From Yuukianura sp. NJ FZ-2021 (Eukaryota), in NCBI GenBank assembly GCA_046563655.1, contig CM102285.1, forward strand, positions 5,208,001-5,272,000: a stretch of DNA of 64,000 nucleotides, written 5' to 3'. Positions 2,998 through 40,000 of this stretch are shown here, piece by piece. Numbering within the stretch: position 1 is the first letter of the stretch; the number at the start of each line of letters is the position of its first letter. The notes below the pieces were generated by a model. It made no database searches. It was not told where the DNA came from and saw nothing but the letters and a program-made list of their open reading frames with translations. The position numbers and the translations under genes were made by a program.

Positions 2998-6890
<3,893 letters not shown>

Positions 6891-12245: not shown

Positions 12246-14911
12246 TTAGCAAGGAATGGTTTCCTTGGATAGCGAAAGGAAGGGAGAAGCCTGAAGATTG
12301 TAACGTCGTATTTCGAGCTACCTCCAAATCAATTAATTGGTTTGGAGTTGGGCCAAATTCGGACGCCCCAATCAGTTAAGACAAATAACTAATTGAAACC
12401 GGGTAAGAGGCATGTCGAGTATACAAATTGATAATTAGCAAAAGCTGACAAATTGAGACAAGAGGTCTCATGACTTATGATAAGAGAAAGGCCATTTGAC
12501 AATTCCAATGGACTTGTCATGTAAAATAACTTGTTCCGCAATTTTGACATCTTAGGTTAGGCTACGTTAGGTTGGGATGTCGAATCGTCAGAAAGTTTGT
12601 ATCCCATTCATTCCCGATGTTTATCAGTTCGCATAATGTCGTAAATTTGCCTCACTTTTGACGTTACTTGACCTGACTGTTTGCCTGACTTTTGACGTGA
12701 CGTTTGAAGGACAGTTCAGGTCAAACGTAGTGGTTTTTAAATATTAGTGAAACCCTGTTAATGGTAAGTCATCCTCTAGTTAGCTTTAGCTTTAAGCTCT
12801 CTTAGTTAAGTCATTCTTAGATTTGCTCTCGCTCTAAGCAGACTTTCCTAGTAAGATCAGTAAGAAAGGTCACTCATAGAATTCGCCTTATAAGTCGTAT
12901 GCCTCATGAAATAAACACTAAACCTCATCTTCATCGCTGCCTGCTGCTTATTCATCACACATCATTTCAACCGTAGCCGAAAAAGTAAAAGAACTATCTT
13001 TAAACAATTGGTTTAAGACTTAGTTAACTAACAACAAACAATAGAAAATGCAGAAGGGTGTTCCGGATCGTCTGGCCCCACCCAACGGGTTTTATGATAG
13101 GCAAAGTTAGGCAAGGGTGAGGTGGACCTCACGCGGGGGTCGTCAGAATTTGAAAATCCACTTAAAGGCCTGGAAGGGTCTATATGTCAGGTCACAGTAG
13201 AGGTGAATCGGTGTTTGACCCGTAGAGCTGTTCTGCTTTAGTTGTTTTCAGAGAACAACTATGATGGAAGTCGCTTTAATGCAAGCAGGAAAATCACCTC
13301 GATTCAAGATGCCGAAAGTGACTTTCCCTAGGCAAAGGCTTTCTTTGGTCAAGGACGCACAAAAATAGGAGGTGATCCTCAAAGGTTTGAACATTTCACA
13401 GAACCTTGGCCAGTAAGCTACGAATAAATTGGTACGCAGATTCTGCAGCTTCAAACCATTAGATTATATTTATTGTTTGTGTAGATTATTACTTCTCCTG
13501 TGTAAGATATGCATTCGGGAGGGGTTAATGTACAATTAATTAGAATTAAGGAACCTTTTCTTGAATTAATGATATCAATTTCTTTTTAAATTCAAAAGTT
13601 TTTCACAAGGATTGACTCTGTAGAAAGGTCAATTTTGAAGGAGAATGTTGATTTGAGAGGTCAAAACTTGACTCTTTCTCATATAAAGGTAGTTGACAGG
13701 TTAACTCAACCAGTGATTTTCACACATACTATATATATCATACTATATATAAATTTCCTCGTTTCAATGGAAGTTCTACTGCGATCCTTCCATCCAGCCT
13801 TTAAGGCAAGCTAGAATGGACAAGCGAGGTCAGATATAGTTACATTTACAATAAGTCCTGGAAAAAGATTTTCAGATTTAAAAATTTTTGGCGGAAAAAT
13901 TTGAAAAAATAGTATTTTGAAGGATGAAACTCCAGCCAACAGTCCAATTGCAGTTTTTCTTTCAAATTTCGAAAATATGAATTTGGCGCGAGAATACAAA
14001 TTTAGGAAATTCAAAAAGTAGTGTATGAGGGAATATCAAACCACGAGTTGTAATAGTTCAGTATTCAGTTTCAATAAAATTTCAACGTTTAAAGATTCTC
14101 ATCTCATTTCTGATTTAACATATAGCCACAAAATAGTTTTCGAAGAAAAAAAAATAAACACAAGTCCAAACTTTTAGGGATCCTTATCCCATTAACTTTT
14201 AATTCGATTATATTTTGTTTTTAAGTCATTAAGTCATGATTAGCCTATAGGATGAGTTAACGTAAAATTTCAGGTAACAAATTTTGGACAGAATTTTGAC
14301 GCGAACCCTTCAAAATTGAAAATGAGAGTAGATTCCATAATGTGACTTTTTGCATACCAATTGAAAAATACCATACAACGCTTCGAACTTAGAATTTAAA
14401 TTCAGATTTCATTTGATTTCAATTGAATTCATTTCTTTTTCGAAAAGAAATGAAAATAAACGAAAAATTGCATTCAGACTGAATTAATAGGAGGAGGCTT
14501 AACGTATAACTTATAAGTAACTTCTGTTGACCTCAACAGCCAAAGTAGCAATATTCGTGACCATACCGTTTTGTTCCAAGGAAAATCTCTTGATTTCATT
14601 AGGATTATAGTAACGTCAAGACTTAATCTGGATTAACGGATGAGAAAGTTTTCACTTTCTTTTGTGTTTGCTTTCCGAACTTTCACTTCACTTCTGAAGT
14701 AGTGCGCATGAAGGGGGACCTAGCGCCATTAGCTAAGGTTTAAGAATGACTTCGTCACGATGGAGGATAGATCTCGTGACTATATAGCACTGTTTAAAGA
14801 CAATAGCTTAAGATACGAATCCTCGTAAGGACTTGAAGTATTCCGAGAATACGGAGAAGTCGGGGTCAAGAGGTAGACCCCGTAGCAACTGGTGTAAGCT
14901 TGGCCGGGGTC

Positions 14912-15460
14912 ATGTTATGTGGCGACAATGACAGCTTTTAGTTGAAGGACAATCTGAACACTTGAGGACGCTGGAGTCGCGACCAACCGAAACTTGCTAT
15001 TAGGTAGGGCAAGACCTAAATGAAGGTAAGGTTAGGTCTTAAGTTTGCGGTGTGAACTCTCGACGAAATTTTGTTGGTGAAATCAATTATTTGAAAAATG
15101 AGTCATGCACATGACATTTGATTTTTCTTCTGGCGTTAGCGTCAGAAATATTTTCACTTTAATTTCAACCAAACTTTAGAAATAGAATTAGAATTAAATC
15201 TAAAGTGACTGAGATGAGATGGGACTCACTCAGCACTAGAAGAGAGTTTAAGTTCACATAAAGTGAGAAGATAGTGTTAGGCCCACTCTTACTTTCAGTT
15301 GTATCTCAACACTCTCTCTCAAGTCAACACTTCTCCTATAGCAATTAAGTGTAGTATTAAGTAGTGGGAAAAGAGCAGGAGCTCAGTCATGCGCATTACT
15401 TGCTCCGCCTTTATTTCCACGTCAGCTCCACGTCTTCAACCATAGTAATGTAGGATAACA
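14912..15460 (+). repeat. Possible solo or 3' LTR
   Basis: Bounded by inverted TGTTAT...ATAACA and preceded by G-rich GGCCGGGGTCA. No second copy in the window. Confidence 0.35.
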
Positions 15461-16837
15461 ATACTCATAAGTTTACAATTTCATTCACTACTAGATTCTT
15501 CTCTCAATTCAATTCGATCCGTCAATTCAACTTTCAATTAATTGTTTTTCTTTTCATTTAAGTATTTAATTAAAGTAATTGGCTTCATTTGACATTACTG
15601 GATTGGTCTCTTCATCGTTCACATCATTTCAAATCCAAACTCACTTGAATTCTGCGCATCTTATGGCCGCGATCAATTACAATTTTCATTTAAATGTTGG
15701 ACTCCTTGGCATGATTTTTGGAATGTGGACGGAAATATGTCGTTTGTGTCTTCGTGACACTATGATGCGAAGGACTGTGACAAGAAGGATGTGGAATGTC
15801 ACTCGTGTAGAAAAAAAGGCCACTTCGCAAAATTCTGCAGATCAAAGAGCAAGGCAGTCCCTGCCCAACATGACAATTTTGGACATAAAAAAGTTTCCAG
15901 CATTGTGTCGGTCAATCACGTTCACTACGGTAAACATAAGGAACAATGAAGAAAAAATTAAATGGAATTCTGCTTGTTAATTGCGACACTCCTTCTGAGT
16001 ATGTCGCCAAACGACTGTCATGTCTGTCGGTCATTGACCCTGACATGTCAGCCGAGAAACGAGTTGAAAAACTGATTAAGGGCCTACCAGTTTCCATGAG
16101 AAACATGATGACCCTTGCTGACCCTAAAACTGCTGCTGAATTTTTACAAAAATTAAGAAAATTGGAAAAACCTACCTTTCAAGACAGACGAGGTCATTTC
16201 CAAAATTCAAATTCAGGTAGTTCCAGTTCTGGAACACAAAAATCTAAACCAAATTCAAATTCCAGTGATGGGAAGGAAACACCGTCAACTTCAGACACTG
16301 ATTTAAAAAAATCAGCATTTCAAAAAACGAAAATTTTGCACATTTTGCAAAAAGCCAGGTCATACATTCGATGACTGCTGGCACAAAAACAAAGCCAAAT
16401 CGGGAAGTTCTACTTTCTCCTCAGCACTTTTACCCGAGGAACAAACTGAGGAGACAAACACAAAAAACTAATTGTCACGGGTGATTACGCACACCATAAT
16501 TTAAAAACAGCGTATAATTGCAGTTTACAAAAAGTAAACAATTCTAAAATAGGAAAAAATACTTTAATATTTGAAAATTCAAATTTTTCAAAAAATCAAA
16601 ATAAATTAAATACTAGCGAAAGTTACGCTAGTAAAGTTAAACAAAGTTTAAATAAAATCAATTATTTTACGGAATCCGTTCCGGAAACCTCTGTAGAGGG
16701 CACTAAAGTGCAAGTACCGTTCAGAAATTCAAGTTGATGAAGGAGCTAATTTTAGCAGCATCGGCTTGGACTTTCTGAATGACCTCAAAGGCCAAATTCA
16801 CAAAAGGTACAAAATTCCACCTGTCTTAGTCAATACT

Positions 16838-17007
16838 TTTTTTTTATTTGTAAAAGCCGCTCCCTGCGGGCTCGAAGCCCATGGAGCCAAAATCAATTGC
16901 CTCAAACGGGGTCACAAGGAGTTCGAATGACAGTATCAGATGTAAAGAGAATTGGTTGAAATAGAATCTGCTCAGTAAGGCTAAATTAGGGTCATATTTC
17001 TAAGTAA
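16838..17007 (-). mobile_element. 5'-truncated non-LTR retrotransposon or SINE 3' end inserted antisense in the Gypsy protease region
   Basis: 14 bp direct repeat TCTTAGTCAATACT (16824-16837, 17008-17021). On the minus strand the insert ends in AAATAAAAAAAAA (poly-A tail). Confidence 0.8.
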
Positions 17008-17878
17008 TCTTAGTCAATACTGCCAACAGCCAAACAAGCATAGATGAAATGGTTGAATTGAGATTGCACTTCAACGGTGTACTCACAATTTTGGGATTCC
17101 ACATAATGAAGGGACTCAAGCCAAAAATGCTACTTGGGACTGATTGAACAACAAAAGACTTAAATAAACAGGAATTTACAAACATCGATGATGAAACACC
17201 AATTAATAATTGTCCCAAAAATGAGGAAAAGCCTCAACCAAATAAATTCAAACTGATAAAAACAGTACGGCTTCCAGCCAGAATGACCTCCAAAGTCGCT
17301 GTTAAGTCAGATAAAATTATTTCTGGTTCAACTATTATGAATCCCAACATGACACTTTATGAGACACAGGCCTTACTTCAACCTTATGTCTATTCAATTG
17401 TAAGGGATCATGAAACCGATTTATGGATTACAAATTTAAATGATTTTGAAGTGACCTTGAACAAAGGCACAACAATTGCATATGGCGAAATTTGTCCACC
17501 AGAGAAAAACATTTATGCGTTTACTGAAGATGGCGACACTATCGATTCGGGTGAACAAACTTTTGGAAATTTTGACCCAAAACTAGGAGACAATTTGTCC
17601 AAGGATGAGAAAAATGAATTGAGAAATTTGATTATTCAATTTCCTACGCTATTTGCGGAAGATGAGACCGAATTAGGGAAAACTAGCCTTGTTCGTCATC
17701 AAATTGACACGGGCACAAATCCTCCAATTAGGAATTATCCCCATCGAGTTTCCTATCCATAAAAAAGCAAAATTAACGAAAAAATGAATAAGCTTCTTGA
17801 AAGTGACATTATTGAAGAATCAATTTCTCCTTGGTCATCTCCAGTAATACTCGTTCCTAAAAAGGACGGAAGTTCAAG

Positions 17879-18050
17879 GGTTAGTAGGGAAAGGCGTTGT
17901 ACGCCACCGCCATCTTGGATGTGGGTGGTGTCATGCCAAGATGGCCTGGTTGGGGTGTTGGGTAAAATGGCGCAGCGGTGCTGGACAAAATGGAGGGGAC
18001 AGCCATCTTGGATGTTTTGTGATGGCGGGATGAGTGTTTGTCTTCGAAGG
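17879..18050 (+). repeat. Left terminal inverted repeat of the Polinton-like element
   Basis: Reverse complement of ~27385-27556 with about 7 mismatches counted by eye. Confidence 0.95.
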
Positions 18051-18479
18051 TCTTAAGGGATTGGTGGCCTGGTGGCTCGTGTTTCTGATGCTTTTGCTCA
18101 AGAGGTTTTGAGTGGTAGGGATTGTGGTAGAGAGGGGTTGTGTTGGTGTGGTGGATCAAGGTAGTGTAGTGCGAAGATGACGTTTTCCTATGGACTGTTT
18201 GATTGTATGGAGAGGGTGAGTTTTTCGGTTTTCATTTTTTATGGTGGGTAGGAGATTTGGGAGTTAAGTGGCTCAGCTGAGACTTGTTGCTTGTTCTCTC
18301 TAAGGATTTTAATCAGATTTACGACTGCAGTTTAGGTGTTTTCTGCTGACGTTAGGTCAAAATGTCAACTTGTAAGAAAGAGGATCTTGTGTCAAGTTTG
18401 ACGCTACAAGTTGGTTATGACGCATCAGTCGTTGTGTGTCACTTCTTAATTTTGGAGGTAGTTCGAAGAAGAAGTAGAA

Positions 18480-19157
18480 ATGGGTGAGTTTAATTTTCAT
18501 TGAGAAAAATATTACACGAAATTATTTTTCCGTTTATTATTTTAGATAATCGATTGAATATACTTTTTTTTTCAGTTTGCGATTTCAATCTAGAGTGCAT
18601 CGCTTGCGTGAGCAGTGGATGCTCATATTATGAATTCGTATTTAGTGACGAGTCACTGCGGAAGGTCTGTGCAGTCACAGGATCAGTGATTGGAGCAACT
18701 TTTGAAGTCGATCCTCCTGACGTCACCGCATGTCCGTCGGGCTCAACCACGGTTTCACCGCTTACCACTAGTTCGTCTTCATCTACTTCTGCGCCACCGA
18801 CGCCAACGACAGCTTACACCACTACTACTTTGGCTCCTCGCACGACGACTAAGTTACCGACAATTGTTCCGGCCACTCTTGATGGTGATTCTTGGAAATT
18901 TGGATTTGTTGTCACTTGTAAGCATTTTGATTTATACTTTTTTTCAAAAGATTCCAACAAAACTAAATATTTACTAAATTCGTTCTCTATTTGTAGTGAT
19001 CTTGTTCCTGGTTGCTGTCATTGCTTGCTTTGTTCTTTTGCGTCAATGGTGGATCCGACGCCGTGCGGTGGATGGGACCAGGCGTAGCCAGCTGCGCATG
19101 CGTGGCGAAGAGCAAATTCCATTGAGAATGTTGGCGCTCGACGAAAGTCATTTTTAA
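18480..19157 (+). CDS. Spliced single-pass membrane protein: Cys-rich (PSI/CD164-like) domain, Ser/Thr mucin stalk, TM helix, short tail
   Basis: ATGG then GTGAGT intron 18484-18575. Exon 18576-18917 (CDFNLECIACVSSGC..C..C plus Thr-rich stalk). Intron 18918-18996. Last exon is in frame and gives TM FGFVVTLILFLVAVIACFVLL, RQWWIRRR, ...DESHF*. The true 5' end and signal peptide are uncertain. Confidence 0.7.
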
Positions 19158-20140
19158 GCGTGTTCTTCCAATTCAAGTTACCACAGAAACAACAACAACA
19201 ACAAAAACGCGAGTATTTTTAGCAATTGAAGAGTTTTAGCGGTTATTTCAGAAATCAGCTCATAACTATATTTTGGCTCAATTTCAATATGAATTCAACA
19301 ACTCTTAGCTTTTCAACTATTTAGTTAGGTTTAGATTTATCAAATACGAGAGTTATTTTCAATTTAACTAAGAAATGTAATTTTCATTCCTAAAGTCAAC
19401 GTGAAAAATTGTAACCACTTTTACCTTTGTAAAAAAAATTTTTAAGAAAATCAGAAAATTATTTTACTCGTGCTCAGCCTTACGCTGTCGTGACTGCTGC
19501 TGCTTAGTAACCAAAGTTCCTTACAAAGATTTTGAGTTTAAAATAAACTAGTAAATCTCACAAAACAAATTGAATATTCTTGTTTATTTCATCGTATAAA
19601 ATTTCTGCATTAAACGAGTGAAAGGTTTCGAAGGTTGTATACAGAGTTGGAAGATACAAAAAGTTGCAAAATACCAGAAAATGATAGTAGAATTAGTATT
19701 TAGTATGAACTATTTAGATTTAGTACTAAAATTCTAGGCTGCTGAAACCTGGTTTTTAAAAGTGAAAAATACTTTGAAATTAAAGTTTCTTCTCTTCGCA
19801 TGTGACAGTTTTGTACAAAACTGTAAAATCTTGTTTTGTCTCTGCTGACAAATCAATCGGAGTAGAATCCTTGGCCGCGTAGGTGCATGCTGCTCGACCT
19901 TCTCTGATTATCTTGTCCATTTCGTCGGTACTTTTTCCAACAGTGTTCCCGCCTTTGGACGTATCAGTCGCTCAGGAAATTGCTAAAAAAATTAAAAAGT
20001 CAGCAAGAAAGACCGAAGCTCCATTGTACCCAACTGTTCAATCATGATATAAGCTAACTGCTTACTGCCTAAATCTTGCTTTCATTCCTTCGACATATTC
20101 TGAGGATCTCTAATTGAGATTTACTCAATCCTGTTTCATC

Positions 20141-20804
20141 ATGCCTTTTAGGATGGCCCAGGAGAAGAATACAAAACTTCCACTCCCTTCTGATTTCGCA
20201 CCTATCATGTGGTTAAATCAGTGGGATTTCAAATAAATCGTTGCAATGGACTGCGAATTTGTGCATACTCGGAAAGGGAAAGGCGCCTCCCGAGTCCCCT
20301 GCGTTAGTAGAGAGGTAGTAGTAGGTAGATATCGTTATCAGCTCACTCCTTCCAATCTACTCTGCTAAAATATATCACCCTAAGAATTCCTTCTTGGTAA
20401 ATGAGTCTACTCGTCAAGTAAATGAATTTGAAGCGGATAGCTTTGACAATCCAGACTACAAATCTTTAGAGACAGTACGCGAAGAGGTTAGACAGATACT
20501 CCAAGATAAAGTGGTCGTAGGCGTCGCATTGAAGGGGGACATGAATTCACTCCACCTTCAGCAAGACCAGTTCAGTCACGTCGAACTACACGACACTTTT
20601 TTTAAGCACCGACTGGACAACAAAGGAGTAATTATGCTGGCTAACAAAGGCAGACCGATTCCCGAACCAATCGCACTCGGGACAATGTACCAAATCCTTT
20701 TCCGAAGACCACTGTACACAAACGGGTCGATTCATTCCTCTTTAGAAGACGCTACGGCAACAATGGAGATTTTCAACCAACAGGTTCATATTCCGATACC
20801 GTAG
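20141..20804 (+). pseudogene. DEDDh 3'-5' exonuclease (REXO4/REX4/ISG20-like), disrupted
   Basis: ExoI IVAMDCEFV (~20237-20263, just after an in-frame TAA), ExoII-like KVVVGVALKGD, ExoIII HSSLEDATATMEIF. Frameshift near 20300-20330. Confidence 0.75.
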
Positions 20805-20946
20805 GTTCCAGATAATCCATCCTCCAAATTGTTCACTGCATGGTTAATTCAAACCAAAATCGGCCTAACTGCACCGGCAATTCATTCTATCCTTAAATGA
20901 GAACTTTGTTGACCTAGTACAGGTTAACTTTTCTCTTTATTTCAGG

Positions 20947-22065
20947 ATGCAGAACAACTTGTACCGCTCAAATTTGGCAGCAACGGAGGGCAGAGAATTG
21001 TCCTACAAATGCTGGCAACGCGAGGTCAAGTGGCAAGGTCACCAACTTACTCCAGCACTTAACTTCGACTCAATACCGGAGTCGGAGAAACAGCGTGCCT
21101 ATCAGGTCTACCTCGAATCGGTCCGCCTTAGAACCCGCGTTAACGCCATGTTGGCCAGCATGCAGCCTAACTTTGTCTACGGAGCTACGGTGGAACACAA
21201 ACTGGAGGGAGAAGAAATCCTTAACATAAGTGGTCCACACTACAACCACATCACCAACAACAAAATCGAACACACGAAGAACTACAAGGACGAACCAAGG
21301 GTCCGCGCACCACTAAACCCGGAACGCAAACTCAGCCCAATTCCGCAATACCACAGCCGCCATAACGAAGACAATGACACGGATCATTATGATGGTTACC
21401 ACAAGCGATACCGCTCTCCTGGGAGCGGAAGCGGTTCAAATCGGCCGTCTCCGCCCCGTCAAGATCGTGATCACCGATCAAATCATCGAACAACTGAACA
21501 TACTCAACACCGACGGCACAACTCCAACGACCGACGCAACGATAACAGACGGCCTCAATACTCGAGCCACGAAAGAGATTATTCCGGTACTCCAACAGAG
21601 TATCGGAAGAATCACACTTCAGGATCTGCAGAACGGGAAACAAACAGACACCAAGACTACCGGAAGAACCGATTTGAAACCTACAGTTGCTCAACTGCAG
21701 ATAAAAAAACCGTTCCGCGGAATCAACACCCAGTTCCCACTCCATCTTCCATCTATGACAAACCAAAAACGTACTTTGGATCCCACTGTCAGGCCCCTCA
21801 TAGTGAGTCACACTCTTACAGTAGAGGCGATGGCCAAATCGGCCATTCGTCCAGTAACTACGAGCCCGTGTGGGAACTCAGAAGACAAACTACCACGCCT
21901 CCAAAAACATGGACTAACCCGAAACCTTCAACGGAAGTTCGTCCGAGGGCCAGAGCCTCCAGCCCGAAGAGACGTCAAACCTCCCCCACAACCACTTCAC
22001 CTAGCAAAACGGCGTCATTCTCCAAAAACAGTTATGAAGACCCCGAACTAGGGGTCCTCACGTAA
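20947..22065 (+). CDS. Hypothetical low-complexity R/S/H/T-rich protein
   Basis: 372 aa open frame directly after a polypyrimidine-CAG acceptor; no recognisable domain. Confidence 0.4.
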   Translation: MQNNLYRSNLAATEGRELSYKCWQREVKWQGHQLTPALNFDSIPESEKQRAYQVYLESVRLRTRVNAMLASMQPNFVYGATVEHKLEGEEILNISGPHYNHITNNKIEHTKNYKDEPRVRAPLNPERKLSPIPQYHSRHNEDNDTDHYDGYHKRYRSPGSGSGSNRPSPPRQDRDHRSNHRTTEHTQHRRHNSNDRRNDNRRPQYSSHERDYSGTPTEYRKNHTSGSAERETNRHQDYRKNRFETYSCSTADKKTVPRNQHPVPTPSSIYDKPKTYFGSHCQAPHSESHSYSRGDGQIGHSSSNYEPVWELRRQTTTPPKTWTNPKPSTEVRPRARASSPKRRQTSPTTTSPSKTASFSKNSYEDPELGVLT

Positions 22066-22411
22066 CAGCCCTCGTCCGACAGATACAAAAAGGTATGGTG
22101 GATACGACCGAGAATCTTTCCGGAATATACATCAGCGAGACAACGCTTACTTTAGCGACGTCCACCATACCCATCCTACGACAACCACTTCCTCATCCAG
22201 TCGTCACACCGATGAACTGAACCAACCCAGTTCCAATCACACACCAAAACATTATAGAGACGTCGTACCAAGGAACACAAAACGCGACAAGACTCCACAA
22301 CCTTACGACGATGGTAACTCAAACCGATTACCATCCAAAACTTCAACAAGGACGATCAGTCAACGACACACGACTCCGCCCAATCGGCGACAGTCAGCTC
22401 CACGGGATCCC

Positions 22412-23122
22412 TTGTACAACTTTGCGGGATTAATTCCTAACGAAACTAAATCTCCACCGACCTCCCCAGCAATTCCAGTCGAGACGACAAGCATACAGCC
22501 CACACAAACTCAGATACGTCTCAACCAAGCCACGCAACTACATGCAACAGGACAGGAGAATCCTACCCTGACACCATCACAGCTCACCTCGTCTACACTG
22601 ATCGACGAATTATACGCAAAGATCCAGAGCCTCGAACGTAAATTTGAGGACCAGAACCGCCAACTCCAACAACAGCCAAAACCATTTCCGTTACCCGTCG
22701 TACATGACTTCTACTCAAAGGAACCCAAGAAACAGTTGGTCCTTAAATTGACTCGACTTACAGCTCAGGAGTGTTCTAATACCTCCGCTTCCACTTCTCC
22801 AACCGGGAGCCAAAAGTCCCAGAAGTCGTTATCCAACTTTAAAGTCCCTCTCCTCTCCAAACAAAAAAGACTCCGGCTTTACGACGCTCCAGGGAACCAT
22901 CGCCATCTCCAAAACGAAATTCGACACCAAATTCCTCAAAGAAACAAAAGACTGAAGCGATCCAGAAACCAAATCGGACAAGCTCGTATAACCGGCCCTC
23001 CTCCAATCGCTCCACTCATCACTCACGCGAGACCTCCAAATCGGATCGAGTGGCCGATCGGGCCACCTAGAACCCACGGTGGGGCACCTTCGGGTATGAC
23101 TACCGAGAGTTGGAGGTGTTAG
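22412..23122 (+). CDS. Hypothetical Pro/Thr/Gln-rich protein with a short coiled coil
   Basis: 236 aa ORF with a LYAKIQSLERKFEDQNRQLQQQ coiled coil; may be a frameshifted continuation of the upstream ORF. Confidence 0.35.
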   Translation: MYNFAGLIPNETKSPPTSPAIPVETTSIQPTQTQIRLNQATQLHATGQENPTLTPSQLTSSTLIDELYAKIQSLERKFEDQNRQLQQQPKPFPLPVVHDFYSKEPKKQLVLKLTRLTAQECSNTSASTSPTGSQKSQKSLSNFKVPLLSKQKRLRLYDAPGNHRHLQNEIRHQIPQRNKRLKRSRNQIGQARITGPPPIAPLITHARPPNRIEWPIGPPRTHGGAPSGMTTESWRC

Positions 23123-23263
23123 TAGCCTGACACTGTTCCTCGGGTAGAGATCCTCTCACGCGGACCTCTACTCGAGTACTACTCCTCTCACTCCTCTCAT
23201 CCTCCTCCTCTCTACCTCTATCATAGGGAGGACTCCTACCCCCATAGGGGGCCTCACACCTTC

Positions 23264-26200
23264 ATGCCGGTGACACATGAAATTTTTGTTCCAAAAGTAA
23301 TTTTAAACTCTAGTAATTTTATAGTTTCTAGCTTTAACTTGTATTTGGCAAATAATTCCAAATGGGAAATTGAGTCTTTGAATCAAATTCAGCTATTTAT
23401 TGCTCATTACAATCCAATCAGGGGGCGGGGCTATATTCCAACCTCTCCCGATCTGCACAAAAGGCGCGGGCTCGTTTCAATTAAAACTGACAAAAATTGT
23501 TTTAAATTGAGTTTACTATGCTCAATTTTTGGAGACGAAATTTTGAGAATGTTAGGGGAAAAGGCAAAGTCGCGGGAAAAGCGTTTTCTTGAAGACCCCA
23601 GGAGTTATGAAAGCCATTTCGATAAAATCGATTTGGGATTTTTAAAAGATCCCGCTGCAGTTTCTATGCATGACATTGATGTAGTAGAAGAAAAATTGAC
23701 AGATCTCAGTTTAAACGTTTACGGCCTCGCAGGAAATGACGTTTTTTTGATGATGGCCACAAGTCAGGTTAAAAAAAATCAAGTAAATTTACTCCTCGTC
23801 AGAGACGAAAAAAATCAGAGCAATTATCATTACATATTGATTCGTGACTTTGGAGGATTTCTGGGTAAAGATCGCGGCTACGGCTCACAATTCTGTGCAA
23901 AGTGCCAGAAGCGATTAGACCCAAGATACAAATCTGGACTTTTACATTCGTGTGGGGAGGGGTCTACACGGAAACGGCAATCAAAGAATCACGTCGCCAA
24001 ATTCAAACGATTTGATTCTCTGCTAAAGTTTCCATACTGTATGTACTATCGATTTTTTTTTATGTAAAAATCAAATTTGGACCAGAAAATCTCACAAATT
24101 CAGCAGAATCTGACACTGAACAGGTTCCATTTGCCTATAGTTTCTTTTGTGTGGCTCAGGACGAATTTATTGATAGGTTTTTCTACACCAGCGTAGATTG
24201 CGTCGATCATTTTATAAAAGCAATTTTAAAGTTGGCAGAAGAAAAAACAAGGCTGATTAGGAATAAAAATGTTTTTGTTCCGCCGAGTCGAGAAATTTTA
24301 ACTAAATTTCAAAATGCGACACATTGCGAACTGTGTCAAGACAATTGTTTGGACAAGAGAGACGAACATTTAAAACTTATAATCATGACCACTTTACCGG
24401 CGAAGCAATCCAGATCGCTTGTGTCACGTGTAATTTGCAAAATCGTCGCAGTCACTTTCTCCCAGTTGTAACCATGGGACCACGACACGAGTTTAGTTTG
24501 TTACTTAGAAAAACAACTTGCCCACCAGAGTCAGTTTTTCCTATATGCAAAAAGAATAGGCAGATTATAGGGGTTCAACTGAAACAAAACCACTGGAATG
24601 GAAACTACCGTCACCATTACGTGAGTTAATCTAAAAAACCACGAGATAATCTAATGGACTTGTCTCATTTCATAACGGACATGCCGCTTTCGGAAATTGC
24701 ACAAGATCTGACACACGGTGGCCTAGGGTTATGTTGTTTCGAAAAAGTTTTTGGCGAATTAGCAAATCCTCAGGAATTACTAATTGACGACAGCCTGTTT
24801 CCAGTTTTTGATTCCATTTAGCATTTTCTTGGGCTAGTTGACAAAATTTTCCTTAATATTTCTAACAAAATTGTTTAAAATATCCACCAGAAGCTACAGT
24901 TAGAGACATCATACGACACAAGTGTAACGCTGAGGCTAGTCTCATAGCAGATGCATTCGAGAACCTAAGAAATATTTGTTTCAAAGACTACCAGCTAGAT
25001 TTGTCGTCATTCTGGAGTCTTTCGTCTTTTGGTTTGCAAGCTGCTCTGCTTTTTAGAAACACAGAAATTGAAAGTATCGCTGATTCGGAGATTGGTGAAA
25101 TGGTTACCGATGGAGTTTTTGGCGGTTATTCAAACTACAAAGTTGCGCAGTGTTGCCAACTCGCGATCAAATTCGAATTTTGATCCTAGAATAGCGGAGA
25201 AGGAAATTTTCTGTGGCAACATCCGAATGAGTTACAGCAAGTCGCTGCTTGGTAATCTCCCATACAAAGATATTACGATTTTGTCGGAGACGGAGCTGGA
25301 AACGTTCAATTTCAGCAGAACTGACGATTCGTACGGATATCTATTTCGCGTAGACATTTCATACGTATCTGAGGAATGGAAACGCTACATTTCAGACCTG
25401 CGTTTTCCACAGGAACGTCGGAAAATTTGCATAACGGATCTTTCTGATACACAGAAGCAATGGTTGCAGGATAAGGATAAAGTACTTTTAGATCAGACTA
25501 GAGTGTTAAACACACTTTATGACAAAGAATGTGGCGTATACTATTTGCCGTTTCTGAATTGGATGTTGTCACATGGTGTAAACGTCACACGCGGGTATCC
25601 GTTTTAGAGAATTCGCCATTTTCAAAGATTTTGCAACGTTTAACGTTGAGGCTAGACATAGGGCTAAGTGTGACCTTGACATGCAAATGAGGAAATCTTT
25701 GAATAATAATTTAATTGGAAAAATGCTTGCTCTAGATTCAGACTACGCAGAGTCAAAGTTTATTTTCACCTCTATTGAAGCGAAAGAGCATCTTGCGAAA
25801 GACACTTTTACCGATTTTAATATTATTCACGAGAATTGTTCATTGCTAAAATTTAGAAAGGAACGAGCATCGACCTTTGACCTCAGGTTGACTGCTTTGG
25901 TAGCATTATCTAATGCTCGGCAAAATTTGTATAACATTGTTTACGATGGATTCAAAGCAGAGTTCGGCGACGATTTCAATCATCTCTACAGTAATACGGA
26001 TTCTCTAATTGCACAGATTAATGTCCCCAGGGCACGGTATATTTCTGGGTTGAAAAATATTGAAACTTTTTTTGATTTTTCCAACCTACCCCTAGATCAT
26101 GAATTACATAATGACAAAAACAAAAACATGCCAGGGAAAATGAGGCTGGAAGCTGATCATCTCCTTTCCTTCTACTCGACAGGGTTTAATCAGTATTCAT

Positions 26201-26544
26201 TGCTCGTAGACACAAAATACGAAGACAAGGAAATCTCAAAAGCAGGGGGAATTAAAAAATCAGAAGCAAAGTTTCTTAGGCATTCCCATTATAAAAACAT
26301 CGTCGAGGAAGGGAAACAATTGGAAAAAATCAAAATCAAAACAATCAAGTTGGTAGATGATAAGATTGTTTCGATTTCCAGCGAGCGCTGTAGTCTTGGC
26401 GGGGTGAGTATGAGAAACTTTTTTTCTAATGAACTCAGTTTCTCATTTGGAGATCCTAGAATGTTTAGAAAAATAAATTTTCCGAAGTCGTTAAAAGGTT
26501 ATTCATGTACTTCTTTAAAAAAAACTCATTTTGTTGTCAAATAA
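23264..26544 (+). pseudogene. Protein-primed family B DNA polymerase (Polinton/adintovirus type), frameshifted
   Basis: YNPIRGRGYIP..LVSIK.DKNCF, HYILIRD, FCAKC, exonuclease I region KFPYCMYYD, Zn/endonuclease VII-like HCELC..DHFTGE..ACVTCNLQ, motif A region NIRMSYS..LP, GYLFRVDI, motif B RKSLNNNLIGK, motif C YSNTDS, KNMPGKM and KAGGI. Several stops and frameshifts. Confidence 0.88.
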
Positions 26545-27384
26545 ATACTTTCTTTTATTGTTTACTTCATTTTCTCCGTTCGTTATTTTCAAAAACACCT
26601 TAATTGTAGAACTTTCGAAATTTAACCGTTAATCCGCGAGTCAAGTTCTGGAATGAAAAAAATCTTCCTTATTTTCTTCAGATTTTTAATAAACCGACTC
26701 AATTCGTTAGTGGCATTTGAGCTAAGAAGGTTACCATGGATCCAGCGAAAACGATTGGGTTTGCCACTGCCATGCCAGTCGTCGAGCCAGTGGCTTTTAA
26801 ACTTTACCGATTTGCATGTAATATTATTGTGTTAGATTTCTATTTGTATTTTTTTTAAATATTTATTCTTTAATGTATGATTCAGATTTGAAACGCTACG
26901 GAGCTTCCCATGCAAAGGACGCCATATCATAAAGCACGAGATGGTCGTGCTGGAGACAAACCGAAAAAAGACACGAAGAGACTGAGCCGGCAACCAACCC
27001 GCCAATCCATGAGCTTTTGTTTACTGATTTTGCAAAATACCTTTTTTTCACCATTTCACTAACAAACATTTAACACTATTGTTAACACTATTAAAACTGT
27101 CACATCCAAAGAAAAGAAACTTTAATTTAAATTTTAATTTAAAGGATTTTTTTTCGTTCTCAAAAGTAAGAGTGATGAATCAAAATAAAAAATTTTTGTT
27201 TTCAATCTCTTTAACCGCAATATCCGAATTTTCTTAAATTATCGAAAACATTTTTTTTCCTGAGTGGCGTTTTATATTTTCTGTTTCTAAACATTCGTTT
27301 TCCATACGTAGCATGGACCACTCCATCTCCGTACAACGCCCTCCATAAAAGAGAAGAGAACGGAAGTCATCCATCTCGCTAAAC

Positions 27385-27556
27385 CCTTCGAAGACAAACA
27401 GTCACCCCGCCATCACAAAACATCCAAGATGGCTGACCCCTCCATCTTGTCCAGCACCGCTCCGCCATTTTACCCAACACCCCAACCAGGCCATCTTGGC
27501 ATGACACCACCCACATCCAAGATGGCGGTGGCGTACAACGCCTTTCCCAACTAACT
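27385..27556 (-). repeat. Right terminal inverted repeat of the Polinton-like element
   Basis: Inverted copy of 17879-18050 ending ...CAACTAACT, followed by the TSD TTCAAG. Confidence 0.95.
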
Positions 27557-30500
27557 TTCAAGACTGGTGATTGACTATAGAAAATTAAATGCAATTACCA
27601 AGAAAAACTCTTATCCATTGCCTAGAATGGACGATGCATTGGATAGACTGTCAGGGGCCAAGTACTTTACTGTACTAGATTTGCTATCTGGGTGCTACCA
27701 AATAGAGTTAGACCCAAAAGACAAAAAAAACAGCATTTATAACTCCTGACGGCCTTTACCAATTTAAGAGACTTCCTATGGAACTCTGTAATGCTCCATC
27801 TAGTTTCCAATATTTAATGGATTTGGTTTTACTAAACTTGAAATGGAATATTGTACTCGTTTACTTGGATGACCTTGTTGTTTGGGGAAGGACTTTTAAG
27901 GAGCACAATTCTAGACTCTTCACTGTTCTAAACCAACTCAAAGAAGCGGGCTTAACCCTAAAAATCAGCAGGTGCATTTTTGGAACCAATAAACCTAATT
28001 ATCTGGGCCATATTATTTCAGAAAATGGAATTCAAGTAGATTCGGATAAAACAATTGCAATGGATAATTTTCCAATTCCAAAAAATCAAACCGTCATAAA
28101 ATCATTTTTAGGAATGTGCGGTTACTATAGACGCTTCATCCAAAATTTTGGTAGAATTGCGATCCCACTCACTCTTTTGACAAAAAAAAATCAAAATATT
28201 GACTGGGGTGAAAAACAAAATGAAGCATTTCAAAAATTAAAATCATGTTTGGTCAAAAGCCCAATTTTGTCATACCCAATGGACAATGTCCCAACGGAAG
28301 TGCACTGTGATAGCAGTGGGTATGGGATCGGGGCAACCCTGGTCCAAATCCAAAATGGAAAACCCTGCGTCATAGCTTACGCTAGCCGAAGTATGACAGA
28401 AGCGGAACGAAAATATTCGGGATCCGAACAAGAATGTCTAGCAGTAGTCTTTTCTGTTAAAAAGTTTAGGCCATACATTTATGGAACCAAGTACACAGTG
28501 TACACTGATCACTATGCTCTAAAATGGTTGTTTTCCATTAAAGATGTAAATAGTAGGCTAGCTAGATGGTCAATTACACTGCAAAATCAGGACATGACTA
28601 TTGTACATAGACCAGGGAAAACTGCAAATGACGCTGACCCTTGTCACGTTACGCAGTTGACCCACCAGAGAGCATGGACAGCTCTGAAGTTCTTGTTTTG
28701 GATGGCGTTCCTGACTTGTTTACAATAAACGAATTAAAAGTCAAACAGAGATCCGACCACTTTCTAAAATCGATTATTCTTTACATTAAGTCCTTGGGAA
28801 ATGAAGAATATAATATACCTCAACCTAATGTTAAACAATTACAGGACTATAGTTTACAAAATGGAATTTTATTATTTCCGAATTTTGCACCTTCAGGCAA
28901 CCAATGGAAAATCGTGGTTCCAAAATGCTTAAGAAAAGCCGTTTTAGATTCTCTGCATTGTGGAAATTTAGCAGGCCATTTTGGAATTACTAAAACTTGG
29001 GAATTAGTACGTAGTAGTTGTAAGTAGATTTCATTGGAAAGGAATGTACCGTGATACTAGAAAATATATCCTAGGGTGTGAAGTTTGTCAGAAATTTAGG
29101 AAAAGAATTGGTCCTGAGTTTATTGAAAAGTTTATGGTTTGATGGAAAGTTTTCCTGAGGTGACAAAACCCTTCGAAAGAGTGGGAATTGATTGGATTGG
29201 ACCTTTTGTAAAGTCAGAAAATGGCAACAAATATGCGATTGTTCTCACTGACCACTTCACCAGATACTCAGAAACTGTTGCCGCACCAAGTGCGACAGCA
29301 GAAGAGGTGGTAAAAGACATTAAGTCCAAGATTATTTACACTCACTCTCTTCCAAAGGAATTTGTGGTTGATAGAGGAAGACACTTTACTGCAAATTTAG
29401 TAACAGCTGCAGCAGAAGAATTTAGCTTTAAGCTGAAATTCACAGCTATCCCACAGCAATCCCACAAGCCAATGGAATGGATAAGATGTAACAAAACTGT
29501 CAAGAAAATTATTGCCAAAACGGTTGATGAAAACCACAAAAACTGGGAATTATGCTTAGAGCAAGCGACATTTGCTTACAACATTAAAAAGCATTCATCA
29601 ACTGACTTTTCCCCATTTTATTTGGTTTTTGGTCGAGAAGCAGTTTTACGAATAGATTTGCAGCTTCCTAATTTTAATTCTGACCAAGAACTAAATTTTG
29701 AGGAATTAGAGCATAATAGGCAACAAGCTCAATTAAAATCTAAGGAAAGTCATGAAAAGTCAAAATCTCGAGTTAATAAGAACCGACATGAACATGATTT
29801 TCAAGTGGGCGAACTTGTTTTAAGGTCAAGACCTATTAAAAAGAAAGGCCTCTCAAAAGCGTTCATTGCGCAAAAAGATGGACCTTACAAAATTTTACAA
29901 CAAACAGGTCCAGTCAATTATGAAATTAAAAAGCTAAATAGTAAGTCAAAAAAAGTAATTGTGCATGTCAGAGATTTAGAACATTTTAATTCAGAATTTA
30001 TGCCCAGCTCTGACAGTGAAAGTAGCGAAAGTGAGTTCACTGATCATCAGAATACAAAAGCGAAATCTCTAGACACACAGAGCACAAAGATGCAGCAAAA
30101 GTTCCCCTTTCATCGCCAGTGGGAAGGAAGAAGGAGCAGTCAGTGAGTCACAGCAACTCCACTCGCTCCACTCATTCTCATGCACGATCAGCTGCAACTT
30201 CTGATTTTAAGTCACCAAAAAGTTACAAAAGTAAACATTCAAATCATAACAAAAGTAATTCCAGTAGGGAAATTAGCGCACATTCGTCCAGGTCATTGCC
30301 TACACGAGTAAGTCACGTAGACTCAGACAGTGACAGTGCAGGTGATGGGGAAGTTACTGACCTCGACCCTATAAATAGGACTGAAAACGAAGGAGACGAC
30401 TTTGTCTCAATTTCAACGTCCTCCGAGGAAGAAATCTCTGCTCCACCATCTCCTCCACCAAGGGTCACTGCCCCTAAAAGAAGATCAACTCGTACAAGGA

Positions 30501-30679
30501 AGGCTCCAGATCGCCACGGTGATTGGCAGTATGACTAGTGAAATTGACATGGACACTCTGTGCAGTACGGTGACCGTTAAACACCAGTGGCGACATTTTT
30601 GAAGTGCGACCCTCCATAAAAGCATCATTTTATGACATAAAAATTGTGTGTTTTTTTCAAAATTTTAGCTCTGCGCTAA

Positions 30680-31955
30680 GGGGTGCCGGACCTGAACACA
30701 TATTTTTGAATAGGGTTTGCCCATGGCATACACTTTCACCGAAACTTAGCCATGTTAAATCTCTTTGTAGAACTTCCAAAAAGTAATATTTAGTACAACA
30801 CACCACACCCCACCCACAGCAAACCGTATTTGAAGTCATATAGGTTTATCTGAAATTAAGATTCTAAGGAGAGGCAATTGTAATAACTAATTAAACAACT
30901 AAAATCCAAACTTTCTCACTTACACGTTGAAACATCAATATTTTTTGAAGTTTTGCGACCTTTGCCTTGATCATTCAACTTAATTCCCAAACGTAAGTAC
31001 TTTCTTCACTATTTTCTATTAAAACAATGAAATAAACCGAATCGACTGTTGGAAAGTAACAGCGAAAAATACACCCAACAAAAACAGAATTGGCACTTGT
31101 TCGATTTATTTTCATTTAAATTTTATTTGGAGCAGATGGAGACAAGATCCACGGAACACAAACTGGCCCTTTGGTTAATTGGAGAAGGACTAGAAAAAAT
31201 CACTGGACATAAACTACCTTCCACTGGGCATGTTCTGAGACGACTATTGTACGACGTGCGAACTTGCCATAATTCTGTTAAGGACTCAGCTTCCAAGGTC
31301 ATAGAGGAGGTGATCTTGTTTTGGGAGAAAGCAAGGATCCCCACGAAGAAAAAATCGGACTCCATTTCGAAACTCGTAACGCTGTATGAACGCTACAGGA
31401 AGTTGCAGAAAAGTTCAAATGTAAGGTCTGGCAGCCAGCCAGCATCTGAACAAGCATTTGTTGATACTCTGGACGACCCCTTTGACATCGCACATTCAAA
31501 TGCAATGAACCTAATGACAATTGAAGAGGACAAGGAATTTTTGGTTGCCCAAAGAGAAAAAGGTTATTAAAAAATGTCAGCTGATTTTTAAATTAATCAA
31601 ACTTTTTAACAAAAATAAATTACAAATTAATTATTTTCTAATTTATAGGAAGAAGAGGTTACATGGACGGAGTTGATAAAACGCTAGCAGCCGCTGAAGC
31701 ACAAGAGGAACAACGAGAAGAAAGAAAAAGGAAACGCCTGGAGAAGTCAATGAAAGAATTAGAGTTAGTAGAAATGACTTCAAGTTCCTCGAGCGGTAAC
31801 TCGTCTCCAGAGCGACGTTTCGACCCAGATTACAAACCCACACACCCGCGCTTGGAAGCCCCTTGCAGCTCTAAGTCTATTACTCAACGCGGAACAATCG
31901 ATCTTGTAACATCTAACGTTGCGTCAGCGTTAGATAGGACGAAAATGAGTGTGCA
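30680..31955 (+). mobile_element. 5' part of a DNA transposon, probably Sola2-like, with a spliced transposase N-terminus
   Basis: LPSTGHVL, FWEKARIPT, LDDPFDIAH, EEDKEFLVAQREKG. Intron 31563-31648 joins in frame to GRRGYMDGVDK...ALDRTKMS. Candidate terminus TAA/GGGGTG at ~30680. Truncated before the catalytic core. Confidence 0.6.
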
Positions 31956-37041: not shown

Positions 37042-40000
37042 TGGTGCCGAAAGACGGTTTTCGCCGACAAGACCACGAACGACAACCATCAAAGGAAGTG
37101 ACATATGAATGGCCGTCAGATGCCTCGCAGAAGACGAGAAGGCCAAATTTCCAAAGGCTGATGAGGTGTTAAAATCAAATTTTTGTGTGTACGACTTAAT
37201 GGAAGGAGCCATCAGCGTACAGGAAGCCAATCAACTCGTGACGGAGCTGGAAGGACTATTACGTCGTGGTTGCCTTGAAATTACCCAGTGGGACTCGAAT
37301 TCAAAAGAGCTTCTAAAGTCCATTCCTAAGGCAAAACGAGGTAAAAATGACGTAATTACATGTGATGCTGATTTCGACAGGGTTTTAGGCGTGGGACAGT
37401 GGAGGTGACTATTTTCATTTCAAAGGTTACACTCCAAAACCAGTGGGCGTGGTCACAAAGAGGACGGTCTTGTCGACTATGTCCAAGGTTTTTGACTCAC
37501 TTGGTTTTTTGTCTCCCCTAACTGTCAAAATTAAAGTCTATTTTCAGGTTTTCTGGTCACCAGTTCAAAGAAAAGAAAATGGAATTCTCTCATGGGACGA
37601 TGAGATTCCACCTGATCTGGCTGGACAATGGCATGACTATGTCAAAGGTGTCCATGACATAAAAAGTCTAACTATTCCAAGGTGTTTGTTTTCAGGTTTT
37701 CCAGAAATTGTCGAAATTCATGGATTTAGTGACGCCTCGGAACTCGCCTACTGTGCGGTGGTGTACATTTGGTCAATTCAGAGGAATGGTCGGGCCACTA
37801 CAAATATAATTGCTTCCAAAACAAAAGTGGCACCGATGAAGCAAAACAGCCTTCCGAGACTCGAACTTTCCGGTGCTCTACTTTTGTCCAAACTAATTCC
37901 GAAAGTGCTGGAAGCAACACGACTCAAATGTCCAATCGTCACATGGACCGACAGTGGAACGGTTCTGAAGTGGCTACGAAACACGAGTCGTAAGTTTGTG
38001 ACATTCGTTGCTAATCGTGTTTCTGAGATACAGGAAGTAATTCCTGTCAGTTCCTGGAATTTTGTGCCCGGAACTGACAATCCAGCCGATTTAGGGACTC
38101 GTGGGATCACTGCTGAGGAACTCGTAAGTTCAAAATTGTGGCCCAGACTGGCTAAAAAATGCGAATTTGCCAGTGTTTGAGTCAGAGGGGAAAGTAAGTG
38201 ACTCCTCTAAACTCCTTGAAATGAGAAAGGTAAAAGTGAATCTGACTCTAATTGATCGTGAAATGATTAATCGTTTTTCCAATTACGTGAGGCTTAACCG
38301 GGCGGTAGCGTACGCATTGCGATTTGTTTCATATTGCAGGAATTTGAAACAGGAAGAGAGGCTTATTGGTGATCTATCAGTTGAAGAAACTGACCGAGCC
38401 CTTCTTATGTGCATAAAAGTAGCACAAAATGACGACTACAGTGATGACATAATGGCCCTGAAGAAGAACAATCGAGTGGACAAGGGAAGTGCATTGGAAT
38501 CACTACATCCGTTGCTGGACAGTCATGGAGTTATGCGTGTTGGAGGTAGACTCCAAAAGTCAGACCTACCAAGTGACCAGTGCCATCCCATCATTTTATC
38601 AGGTCAAAATCATTTCACCAAAATCATGGTAAGGTATTTTCATCATTTTTACCTCCATGCCAACTACCAATTGTTGTGGGCAAACTTGTCCAAACGATTT
38701 TGGATCGTGAGAGCGCGAGTCACAATTCGACAAGTGGTCAGAGACTGCCTCAAATGCAAAAGACTCAGAGCGAAAGCCAGTGAACAACTGATGGGAGCAC
38801 TGCCAAAGGCGAGAGTAACTCCTTCTCTGCCATTTACGAACGGTGGAGTCGACTACGCAGGCCCCATTAAGCTGCAGGAAAAGTATGGGCGTGGCAAACG
38901 ACAATTTGACGGTTACTTTTGCGTATTTGTCTGATTTGCGACACGGGCAATCCATTTGGAACCTGTGACTGACTTGACCACTGCAGCGTTTTTAGCGACT
39001 TTAAAAAGATTCATTTCTAGAAGAGGACTTGTGTAAGTCATTTATTCTGACAATGGGAAAAACTTCATTGGCGCAGCTAATGAAATTGCAGAATGGCAAA
39101 AGGTAATTCATGATACTAAAGTCGTTGATTTTTTGTGCGTTTCAGGAATCCAGTGGAAGTTCATACCTCCTGATGCTCCTCACATGTGTGGATTATGGGA
39201 GTCAGGAGTAAAGTCGGCGAAGTACCACCTGAAGAGAGTGATTGGATGCACGACATTGACACTGGAAGAATTCCATACGCTCCTGGCAATGGTGAAAGCA
39301 GTGCTCAACTCACGGCCGATTTGTGCAAAATCTCGTGACCCGGATGACGTTGAGGCATTAACTATTGGACATTTCCTCCTTGGGAAGCCGTTACTCGCCA
39401 TTCCAGAGCCAAGTTTGGCTGAAATCAAAGAAAACCGACTGTCGAGGTGGCAACGAGTCCAACAGATGTCGGAGCATTCCTGGAATCGCTGGAAGAAAGA
39501 ATACTTAAATCTACTCCAGCAGCGTAACAAATGGCGAAACGAATCCGAAAATGTCAAAACTGGCGATCTCGTCCTCATCAAAGACGACGACACTCCACCA
39601 TTGAAGTGGAAACTCGCTAGAGTCACCAAAACATTTCCAGGAGAAGACAACTTGATTCGATCTGTGGAAGTAAACTTCAAAACGACGGAATTGGACAAGA
39701 AAGGTCAACTGAAACTCAAAGATCATGCTACTAGATCCAGAGTAGCGTAAGTCTAGGGAAATGTGTAAATACTGTAAATTTAAAATTCAAAATCATTTAA
39801 GTGTTCATTTCAAAATATTCGTCGATTTATTCTTTAAAATTCTGGGTTAAAGTTAGCTTTAAGATCATAAGTGTTAAGTATCTCTTTCAAGCTATCAAAA
39901 CATAGGTGTTAAGATAGGTTTAGTGTTAACTTCCTATCTCTTTCCAAAAACCATTTGTAAAAACATCTTCCGTTCGAGTAGAGTAAGTACTGAACGTAAG

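Follow-up and report, generated by a model that had tools for sequence, protein, structure and literature searches.

A compact Polinton-like element with an altered protein-primed polymerase in a Gypsy reverse transcriptase gene of Yuukianura sp.

Insertion of the Element into a Gypsy Gene

The window analyzed here is a stretch of 64,000 nucleotides from Yuukianura sp. NJ FZ-2021 (GenBank assembly GCA_046563655.1, contig CM102285.1, positions 5,208,001 to 5,272,000 of the forward strand), and all coordinates given below are positions within it. A Gypsy reverse transcriptase (RT) gene in this window is interrupted by an element of 9,678 bp (17879-27556), which is bounded by terminal inverted repeats (TIRs) and by the duplicated letters TTCAAG. 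All readable genes of the element lie on the plus strand; they are a putative gene for a mucin-like membrane protein, a predicted ISG20/RNase T-like exonuclease gene, two low-complexity open reading frames (ORFs), and a gene for a family B DNA polymerase that is primed by protein (pPolB), of the Polinton/adintovirus type. The new point is this polymerase, which according to sequence comparison belongs to a separate clade with an apparently dead exonuclease site and altered polymerase motifs.

The left TIR (17879..18050, plus strand) starts with the tip GGTTAGT, and the right TIR (27385..27556, minus strand) reads AGTTAGT inward from its tip. Compared base by base from the tips, the two arms have 7 mismatches within the first 172 nt, and similarity decays beyond approximately 18050. 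A repeat search delimited arms of 176 nt (17880-18055 and 27380-27555) that are 95% complementary, and blastn aligned 171 nt with 96.5% identity. A 36-nt core of the TIR is found at two places only in the window, and two matches were reached in none of 100 shuffles. Contigs assembled from sequencing runs (see below) carry the right-arm letter at 17973 and 17989, and two of the seven arm mismatches are thus private to the left arm of this copy. The words CCATCTTGG and AAAATGG occur twice each in the TIRs (17879-18050, mirrored at 27385-27556), alongside the word CCAAGATGG, and may resemble the YY1-type motif AAGATGGCGGC. Polintons follow an AG...CT rule at their tips; this pattern is present at the right end of the element, and the left tip has a G where an A is expected.

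The letters TTCAAG adjoin both ends of the element as a perfect 6-bp target site duplication (TSD). The right copy (27557..27562) was read from the sequence and from the joint in a run contig, and the left copy (17873..17878) is single in the uninterrupted form of the Gypsy gene, where the joint has six shared letters. The flanking Gypsy RT ORFs, 17763..18056 on the left and 27555..27749 on the right, share frame 0. Since the element together with one duplication comprises 9,684 (3 x 3,228) bases, a length divisible by 3, the Gypsy RT reads through the site in frame once the element is removed, with KKDGSSR followed directly by LVIDYRKLN. The match to positions 10-90 of the Pfam RVT_1 profile (E 5.8e-6, under the gathering score) begins immediately past the insertion site. 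The TIRs of about 172 bp, the perfect TSD, the deviating left tip, and the restored RT frame had all been reported in a preliminary description of this DNA, and each of them held up here.

Four runs cover the element, three of which (X1, X3, and X4) stem from one sample, labeled organism A, and the fourth (X2) from organism B in another study; no RNA run is listed among them. One contig of X4 represents an empty site: it connects 17872 to 27557, with six letters fitting either side. In addition, a contig of X1 with a loose end at 27557 reads on into the upstream Gypsy letters. These joints indicate that other Gypsy copies have an uninterrupted site. The element entered the Gypsy RT gene and produced a 6-bp duplication.

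A Divergent Polinton-Type Polymerase

The polymerase gene (23126..26544, plus strand, as for all motifs below) was assigned by homology, profiles, a phylogenetic tree, and a structure model, and it encodes a pPolB polyprotein with a vOTU domain. The protein consists of an N-terminal region, the vOTU protease domain with its Cys (23498-23500) and His (23828-23830), an exonuclease domain, an HNH/Zn insert (24381-24443), and the palm and thumb. The equivalents of the Exo I, Exo II, and Exo III motifs are located at 24044-24061, 24474-24494, and 24914-24937, respectively. Pol A (25215-25238), Pol B (25693-25722), Pol C with the letters YSNTDS (25987-26004), and the KxY equivalent (26185-26199) follow further downstream.

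In a tblastn search the 1,203-amino-acid (aa) relative P0001 matched 23258-26487 in five frame segments (30% identity, E 1.6e-37), and a HMMER search with the 320-aa C-terminal fragment retrieved 1,117 proteins at E ≤ 1e-3, 150 at 1e-10, and 6 at 1e-30. One of the proteins compared, P0002 from Mercenaria mercenaria, carries every canonical motif. The polymerase fragments of the window have no match in Pfam. The Pfam model DNA_pol_B_2 is passed by P0006, a member of the clade described below, and by the relative P0014; among 30 canonical relatives, DNA_pol_B_2 was found in five and Endonuclease_7, which represents the Endonuclease VII/HNH-like insert, in 20. When the profile of the clade was aligned to that of the 30 canonical relatives, hhalign gave a probability of 100 and an E value of 1e-108 over 625 columns. 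Searches of PDB sequences with the clade and canonical polymerase profiles returned nothing at E ≤ 0.01. An AlphaFold model of the N-terminal part (23126-24064), with an alignment of 16 rows as input, reached a mean pLDDT of 63.9. Against BFVD the model matched an adintovirus protein associated with Drosophila at E 2e-8, MELD virus PolB at 2e-4, and a polymerase from an adintovirus at 3.4e-4. In this model Cys125 starts a helix (125-142) and His235 lies within a strand (234-239), a placement that matches the vOTU residues described for Polinton polymerases in the available part of PMC11161782. The pPolB identity is real, though the protein is divergent and its frame is broken here.

Frame changes occur near 24050-24080, 24340-24372, 24821-24866, 25130, and 25586, and an in-frame stop codon is found at 24627-24629. 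Near 25586, as well as near 22052 in the preceding low-complexity frame, the contigs of all four runs have an indel that restores one frame, and the same applies near 24345 to both runs that differ from the window there; these three breaks are therefore private to this copy. The relative P0003 is also uninterrupted across the place of the 25586 break. At a run of nine T (24053-24061), the polymerase flanks do not share a frame, neither in the window nor in the run contigs, where the T-run differs in length. A break common to the whole family, slippage, or a very short intron of 22-40 nt might account for it. The copy in the window is dead, as the frames of the polymerase and the exonuclease are broken and neither protein can be made.

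Contigs of X2 and X4 depart from the window at 23258/23259, exactly where the polymerase homology to P0001 starts, and one contig of X2 has 1,280 unlike letters upstream of this point. These departures suggest that the polymerase module also occurs in another context.

A Polymerase Clade with Lost Motifs

Tree building with 147 rows placed the window sequence in a 10-row clade with P0003, P0005, P0008, P0152, P0004, P0001, P0027, P0007, and P0006 (SH-aLRT 99). Its partner is P0003, with 62% identity, and an earlier tree of 123 rows contained the same clade core with a support of 98. The preliminary description had suggested a pPolB phylogeny alongside Polinton groups, adintoviruses, and related elements; the tree obtained resolves the distinct clade among relatives found by similarity. 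All clade rows besides the window derive from metagenome or run assemblies, and in the wider 16-row group of the 123-row tree the only named relatives are P0014 and P0016 from the springtail Allacma fusca. No relatives were detected in viral contigs with P0001, the window fragment, an alignment, P0004, and P0006 as queries, and the sole return of a scan of metagenome contigs was the 1,040-bp contig of P0003.

Canonical pPolBs have an Asp in Pol A, Kx3NSxYG in Pol B, DTD in Pol C, and the KxY motif. The first Asp of Pol C is replaced by N, H, Q, or Y in all ten clade rows, as opposed to the 137 other rows, which have D (130), E (6), or L (1) at this position. The Lys of KxY is likewise missing throughout the clade, and among the others only in P0082. 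The aromatic residue of Pol B is missing in each of the seven clade rows that cover it vs. three of the other 137. In the exonuclease domain, the clade rows covering the respective positions have uniformly replaced the Asp and Glu of Exo I (3/3), the Asp of Exo II (3/3), and the Asp of Exo III (5/5), and the catalytic residues of these motifs are replaced in the window copy, too. In the 30 canonical rows, the positions lost by the clade are invariant or at least 90% conserved. What the clade keeps are the Asp of Pol A (4/4 homologs), the Lys and Gly of Pol B, the second Asp of Pol C (10/10), the HNH/Zn insert, and the Cys and His of the vOTU domain. Comparison of the window with L001, the contig of P0003, over 240 codons gave a pN of 0.27 and a pS of 0.87, the latter being saturated, and intact clade members have 1,203 and 935 aa. 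The excess of pS over pN and the existence of intact members indicate that the polymerase protein is under purifying selection.

These motif losses raise the question of whether the protein still synthesizes DNA. It might be catalytically dead and act as a terminal protein, protease, or origin-binding adaptor only, with a helper or host polymerase performing the synthesis. Such a role would fit the joint loss of four features of the site, two of them in Pol B (the Ser and the aromatic residue), one in Pol C (the first Asp), and one in KxY (the Lys), and the freedom of the first Pol C position to vary between N, H, Q, and Y over the ten clade rows. Moreover, inactivated pPolB derivatives that keep the terminal protein (TP) and vOTU regions are known in Polinton-like viruses (PLVs) and transpovirons (PMC5499653 and PMC11161782, both in part). 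However, without nucleotidyl transfer there is no easy reason for purifying selection to have kept the Asp of Pol A, the second Asp of Pol C, and the Lys of Pol B, and we consider a catalytically dead protein rather unlikely, although it is the strongest competitor of the explanation preferred below.

A Probable Compact Family Rather than a Local Deletion

The layout of the element is also found in the run contigs. Eight pieces listed for X1 are collinear with it over 18173-27400, with gaps between them and 1-22 differing letters each, and record 9 of X2 spans the same left junction of Gypsy and element (17035-17992). In another contig of X2, 255 letters unlike the window stand before the element sequence, which is present from position 17880 on; this contig represents a copy at another site, and the last letter of its flank would fit an A at the tip. 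Variants with internal deletions were also found, one joining 18713 to 23224 (X1 and X4) and one joining 22847 to 23383 with 12 other letters between (X1, X3, and X4).

The preliminary description had proposed a compact family and had offered a deletion after insertion as an equally good alternative. According to the latter, a full-length Polinton would have lost its integrase and virion genes by a one-off deletion at this locus. This copy has indeed decayed, and Polinton remnants that retain the pPolB end are common according to the accessible portion of PMC11414722. Nevertheless, contigs from four runs follow the whole element collinearly, the duplication and the two TIRs have remained intact, the left end is found at another site in one contig, and the polymerase forms part of a separate clade. 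As the layout is common to contigs of four runs with two organism labels, a local deletion is very improbable, and the compact layout is probably a property of the family.

In organism B (X2) the word depth is approximately 120-370 over 17982-21527 and 4-19 over 21528-27437, as compared to an even depth in organism A. In organism B, a shortened derivative lacking the polymerase may have been amplified, contig depth being a weak measure of this.

Genes Not Detected and Presumed Accessory Cargo

The element was scanned for further genes by comparing all 89 six-frame ORFs of at least 45 aa to Pfam at E values up to 1. None of them matches an rve integrase, and the only rve in the neighborhood is the integrase of the Gypsy element (29127-30143). 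Families of cysteine proteases, packaging ATPases, and capsid proteins have no match either, with the reservation that Pfam is weak on Polinton capsids. Cas1, RNA polymerase, and capsids with fusion to a superfamily 1 (SF1) helicase, which would mark a casposon, a linear plasmid, or a PLV, also lack a Pfam match among these ORFs. The unassigned stretches of the element measure about 435, 975, and 835 bp and are thus too short to provide space for a capsid gene. Within these limits, the element is integrase-less and, apparently, capsid-less, as originally described. Rfam families and tRNAs are absent from 17500-28000.

The first gene of the element (18577..19157, plus strand) plausibly encodes a mucin-like membrane protein and was predicted from a weak Pfam match and from splice signals read in the sequence. 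Its first exon encodes a Cys-containing part followed by a S/T/P-rich part and ends at 18917. An intron of 79 nt (18918-18996) with GT-AG borders and a TACTAA-like branch word follows, and the second exon (18997-19157), joined in phase, adds a hydrophobic, presumably transmembrane helix and a basic tail. The sole hint of a family is the match to the MGC-24 sialomucin family (E 0.043, below the cut-off).

The second gene (20142..20804, plus strand) was assigned by weak profile scores and motif inspection as encoding an ISG20/RNase T-like DEDDh exonuclease. The half that contains Exo II and Exo III matches Pfam RNase_T with E 0.006 and 17.6 bits, below the curated threshold of 24, and human ISG20 in the PDB (1wlj) with E 0.006. 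Exo I (AMDCEF, 20243-20260) lies upstream of this half in a different frame; Exo II (KGDMNSL) and Exo III (HSSLEDA) are located at 20532-20552 and 20733-20753, respectively, all on the plus strand. By inspection, all five DEDDh residues are present in order in the predicted protein. The gene is interrupted by an in-frame stop codon (20234-20236), within which all four runs have a different letter, and its frame shifts within a short stretch of repeated GTA at approximately 20315-20328. A word-based search found no relatives of the exonuclease at E ≤ 1e-3, and a single-sequence structure model was uninformative (mean pLDDT 31).

Between the exonuclease and the polymerase, two ORFs of 398 and 356 aa (20869..23122, plus strand; first Met at 20947) have a high content of S, R, T, P, and N. 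Together they make up a low-complexity reading frame of approximately 750 aa that breaks near 22052-22065, and the second of them is directly upstream of the polymerase in the same frame, with one stop codon between (23123-23125). No tandem repeats and no Pfam matches were found in them. Dinucleotide shuffling, repeated 500 times, never gave an ORF as long as either of them (longest ORF 290 at most and 147 on average). The two ORFs are thus more than a by-product of an A/C-rich strand and are probably coding.

The exonuclease and the membrane protein would represent accessory cargo. Taken together, the gene content given in the preliminary description stands as regards the pPolB, the low-complexity ORFs, and, plausibly, the spliced membrane protein gene; the DEDDh exonuclease depends on weak scores, and neither it nor the pPolB is intact. 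The suggestion that the cargo is host-derived was not borne out, with no close relative found for the exonuclease and the E value of 0.043 for the sialomucin match.

A 39-nt internal inverted repeat (19774..19812, plus strand, and 27093..27131, minus strand; the arms match at 90%) encloses the exonuclease, the low-complexity ORFs, and the polymerase. It may be a shared regulatory word or a remnant of older ends. The possibility that its arms are the ends of a nested element was dropped, as no target duplication adjoins them.

The probably coding low-complexity frame, which exceeds all shuffles and has no Pfam match, leaves room for the view that the family is self-sufficient and is integrated, without any helper, by an unrecognized protein encoded either in this frame of 750 aa or in the HNH/Zn insert of the polymerase. 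The clade has retained this HNH/Endonuclease VII-like insert, and the contigs that carry two other clade members, P0001 and P0004, measure 8,523 and 8,952 bp, respectively, which is similar to the size of the element. However, AG...CT-type tips combined with a 6-bp duplication are the hallmark of the rve integrase of Polintons. The low-complexity frame with its S/R/T/P/N-rich composition gives no sign of a catalytic fold, and the insert is also present in canonical Polinton polymerases (20/30), whose elements have an integrase. We therefore regard a self-sufficient family as improbable.

Proposed Mobilization in Trans

The explanation that we prefer, and hold to be probable with a good measure of doubt, is that the element is one dead member of a compact, multi-copy family of non-autonomous DNA transposons that descended from Polintons/Mavericks and is mobilized in trans. 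According to this model, a retroviral-type integrase from another element would recognize the tips and integrate the element. The polyprotein encoded by the element itself, cleaved by its own vOTU domain, would still prime at the TIR ends, and the element's own polymerase would perhaps copy the linear element, without proofreading. That the family's own protein still primes and may also copy is suggested by the retention of the two metal-binding Asp and of the Pol B Lys. If mobilization in trans is accepted, a still-active polymerase is somewhat more likely than a dead adaptor.

Several observations weigh against this explanation. The left tip reads GG instead of AG, and the window copy has an Asn in place of the Pol A Asp. 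As the frame change at the T-run is also present in the run contigs, the polymerase of the family may be broken in most copies. Neither a second copy of the element nor a Polinton fragment was found elsewhere in the window, and hence no helper is seen there. The empty-site joint is a single contig whose short side has 23 letters, and the copy with a different flank is likewise known from one contig. The run data are all contigs, the depth of which is not copy number. The absence of a capsid leans partly on coding room, given that Pfam has no strong models of Polinton capsids, and the low-complexity frame of 750 aa could hide an unrecognized activity.

A more specific scenario starts from the altered Pol C motif of the clade, with xTDS in place of the canonical letters. 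The xTDS clade as a whole might be a capsid-less, integrase-less satellite lineage of Polintons, in which the stand-alone DEDDh exonuclease encoded upstream edits 3'-5' in trans for the proofreading-less polymerase and in which the integrase and any virion are borrowed from a full Polinton. We consider this scenario speculative and doubtful, and equally so its central idea that the DEDDh exonuclease replaces the proofreading domain, which was derived from one element. The arrangement would resemble the split of polymerase and proofreader between the alpha and epsilon subunits of bacterial Pol III. To our knowledge, such a split has not been described for protein-primed polymerases.

Surroundings in the Window

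The remaining RT, RNase H, and integrase (rve) of the host Gypsy element extend over 27712-30143. This element, which lies in the region 14500-31000, has decayed, with a stop codon at 17760-17762 and a frame change near 27712-27749, and no direct repeats of the size of long terminal repeats (at least 80 nt) were found in 11000-35000. The other genes and elements in the window are a hAT-like DUF659 fragment, a GH31 glucosidase that includes a trefoil domain (minus strand), a BEL/Pao element, a LINE encoding endonuclease and RT, and a topoisomerase I (minus strand), which are spread over the stretches 1564-6800, 37389-39747, 42324-44447, and 53280-55766. Together with the Gypsy element, the GH31 gene, topoisomerase I, the BEL/Pao element, and the LINE point to an animal genome. 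For the stretch 46112-46642, the baculovirus family Orf78 (ac78) came up as a weak match with E 3.6e-5, which does not reach the cut-off.

Comparison with Known Systems

Polintons by definition encode a pPolB and an integrase (PMC5499653, in part). They have a size of 13-25 kb, TIRs of 100-1,500 bp, and target duplications of 5-8 bp (PMC10748475, in part), with long TIRs and a 6-bp duplication being typical (PMC3014272, in part). The element shares with Polintons/Mavericks and adintoviruses the long TIRs, the 6-bp duplication, the AG...CT-type tips, and a pPolB composed of N-terminal region, vOTU domain, HNH/Zn insert, and palm, which agrees with its first characterization as Polinton-like. 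It differs from them in that it has no rve integrase, in that capsid, ATPase, and protease genes were not found with Pfam, and in its size of 9.7 kb, as compared to the range quoted above from the available text of PMC10748475. Furthermore, its polymerase lacks the Exo motifs, which according to the same portion of that study are conserved in all surveyed integrase-linked pPolBs. With the end features and the polymerase of Polintons present and their integrase and size absent, the element is best described as a Polinton derivative and not as a Polinton in the strict sense.

The inactivated pPolB derivatives of PLVs, Tlr1, and transpovirons keep the TP and vOTU regions and are fused to a helicase (PMC5499653 and PMC11161782, as far as accessible). 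As in these derivatives, TP, vOTU, and palm are kept in the element's polymerase, and exonuclease function and canonical polymerase motifs are lost. In contrast to them, however, it still has the exonuclease domain, though without its catalytic residues, as well as the metal-binding Asp, and it carries no SF1 helicase. In addition, it resides in an animal host, in a TIR transposon apparently without a capsid.

Repbase contains 'Polinton-N' entries. Remnants derived from the pPolB end of Polintons have been described in Caenorhabditis elegans (PMC11414722, in part). Like non-autonomous transposons and such remnants, the element combines TIRs and a duplication with the lack of a matching recombinase, it has variants with internal deletions, and the single copy in the window has decayed. 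Unlike typical non-autonomous transposons, this family is not a short shell, since it keeps a large polymerase gene under purifying selection and other genes. In the literature searched, to the extent that its texts were accessible, no family of non-autonomous Polintons of this kind was described, and no paper combining 'Polinton' and 'DEDDh' was found.

The putative exonuclease has the same five catalytic residues, in the same order, as the ISG20/REXO group of DEDDh 3'-5' exonucleases, and it matches RNase_T and human ISG20 weakly. It differs from this group in that it scores below the cut-off and has no close relative among the sequences searched, in its location inside a transposon, and in the broken frame of this copy.

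The large census of Polinton polymerases considered integrase-linked pPolBs only and reported all Exo and Pol motifs to be conserved (PMC10748475, in part); integrase-less elements of the kind described here would escape a census designed in this way, at least as outlined in the accessible part of that study. A constrained polymerase lineage that has lost its exonuclease site and remodeled its nucleotide pocket, and that is encoded in a TIR element of 9.7 kb, suggests that Polintons have given rise to long-lived dependent derivatives, as have other transposons and viruses. Such a lineage would also offer a natural test case of which parts of a protein-primed polymerase serve priming and which serve copying.

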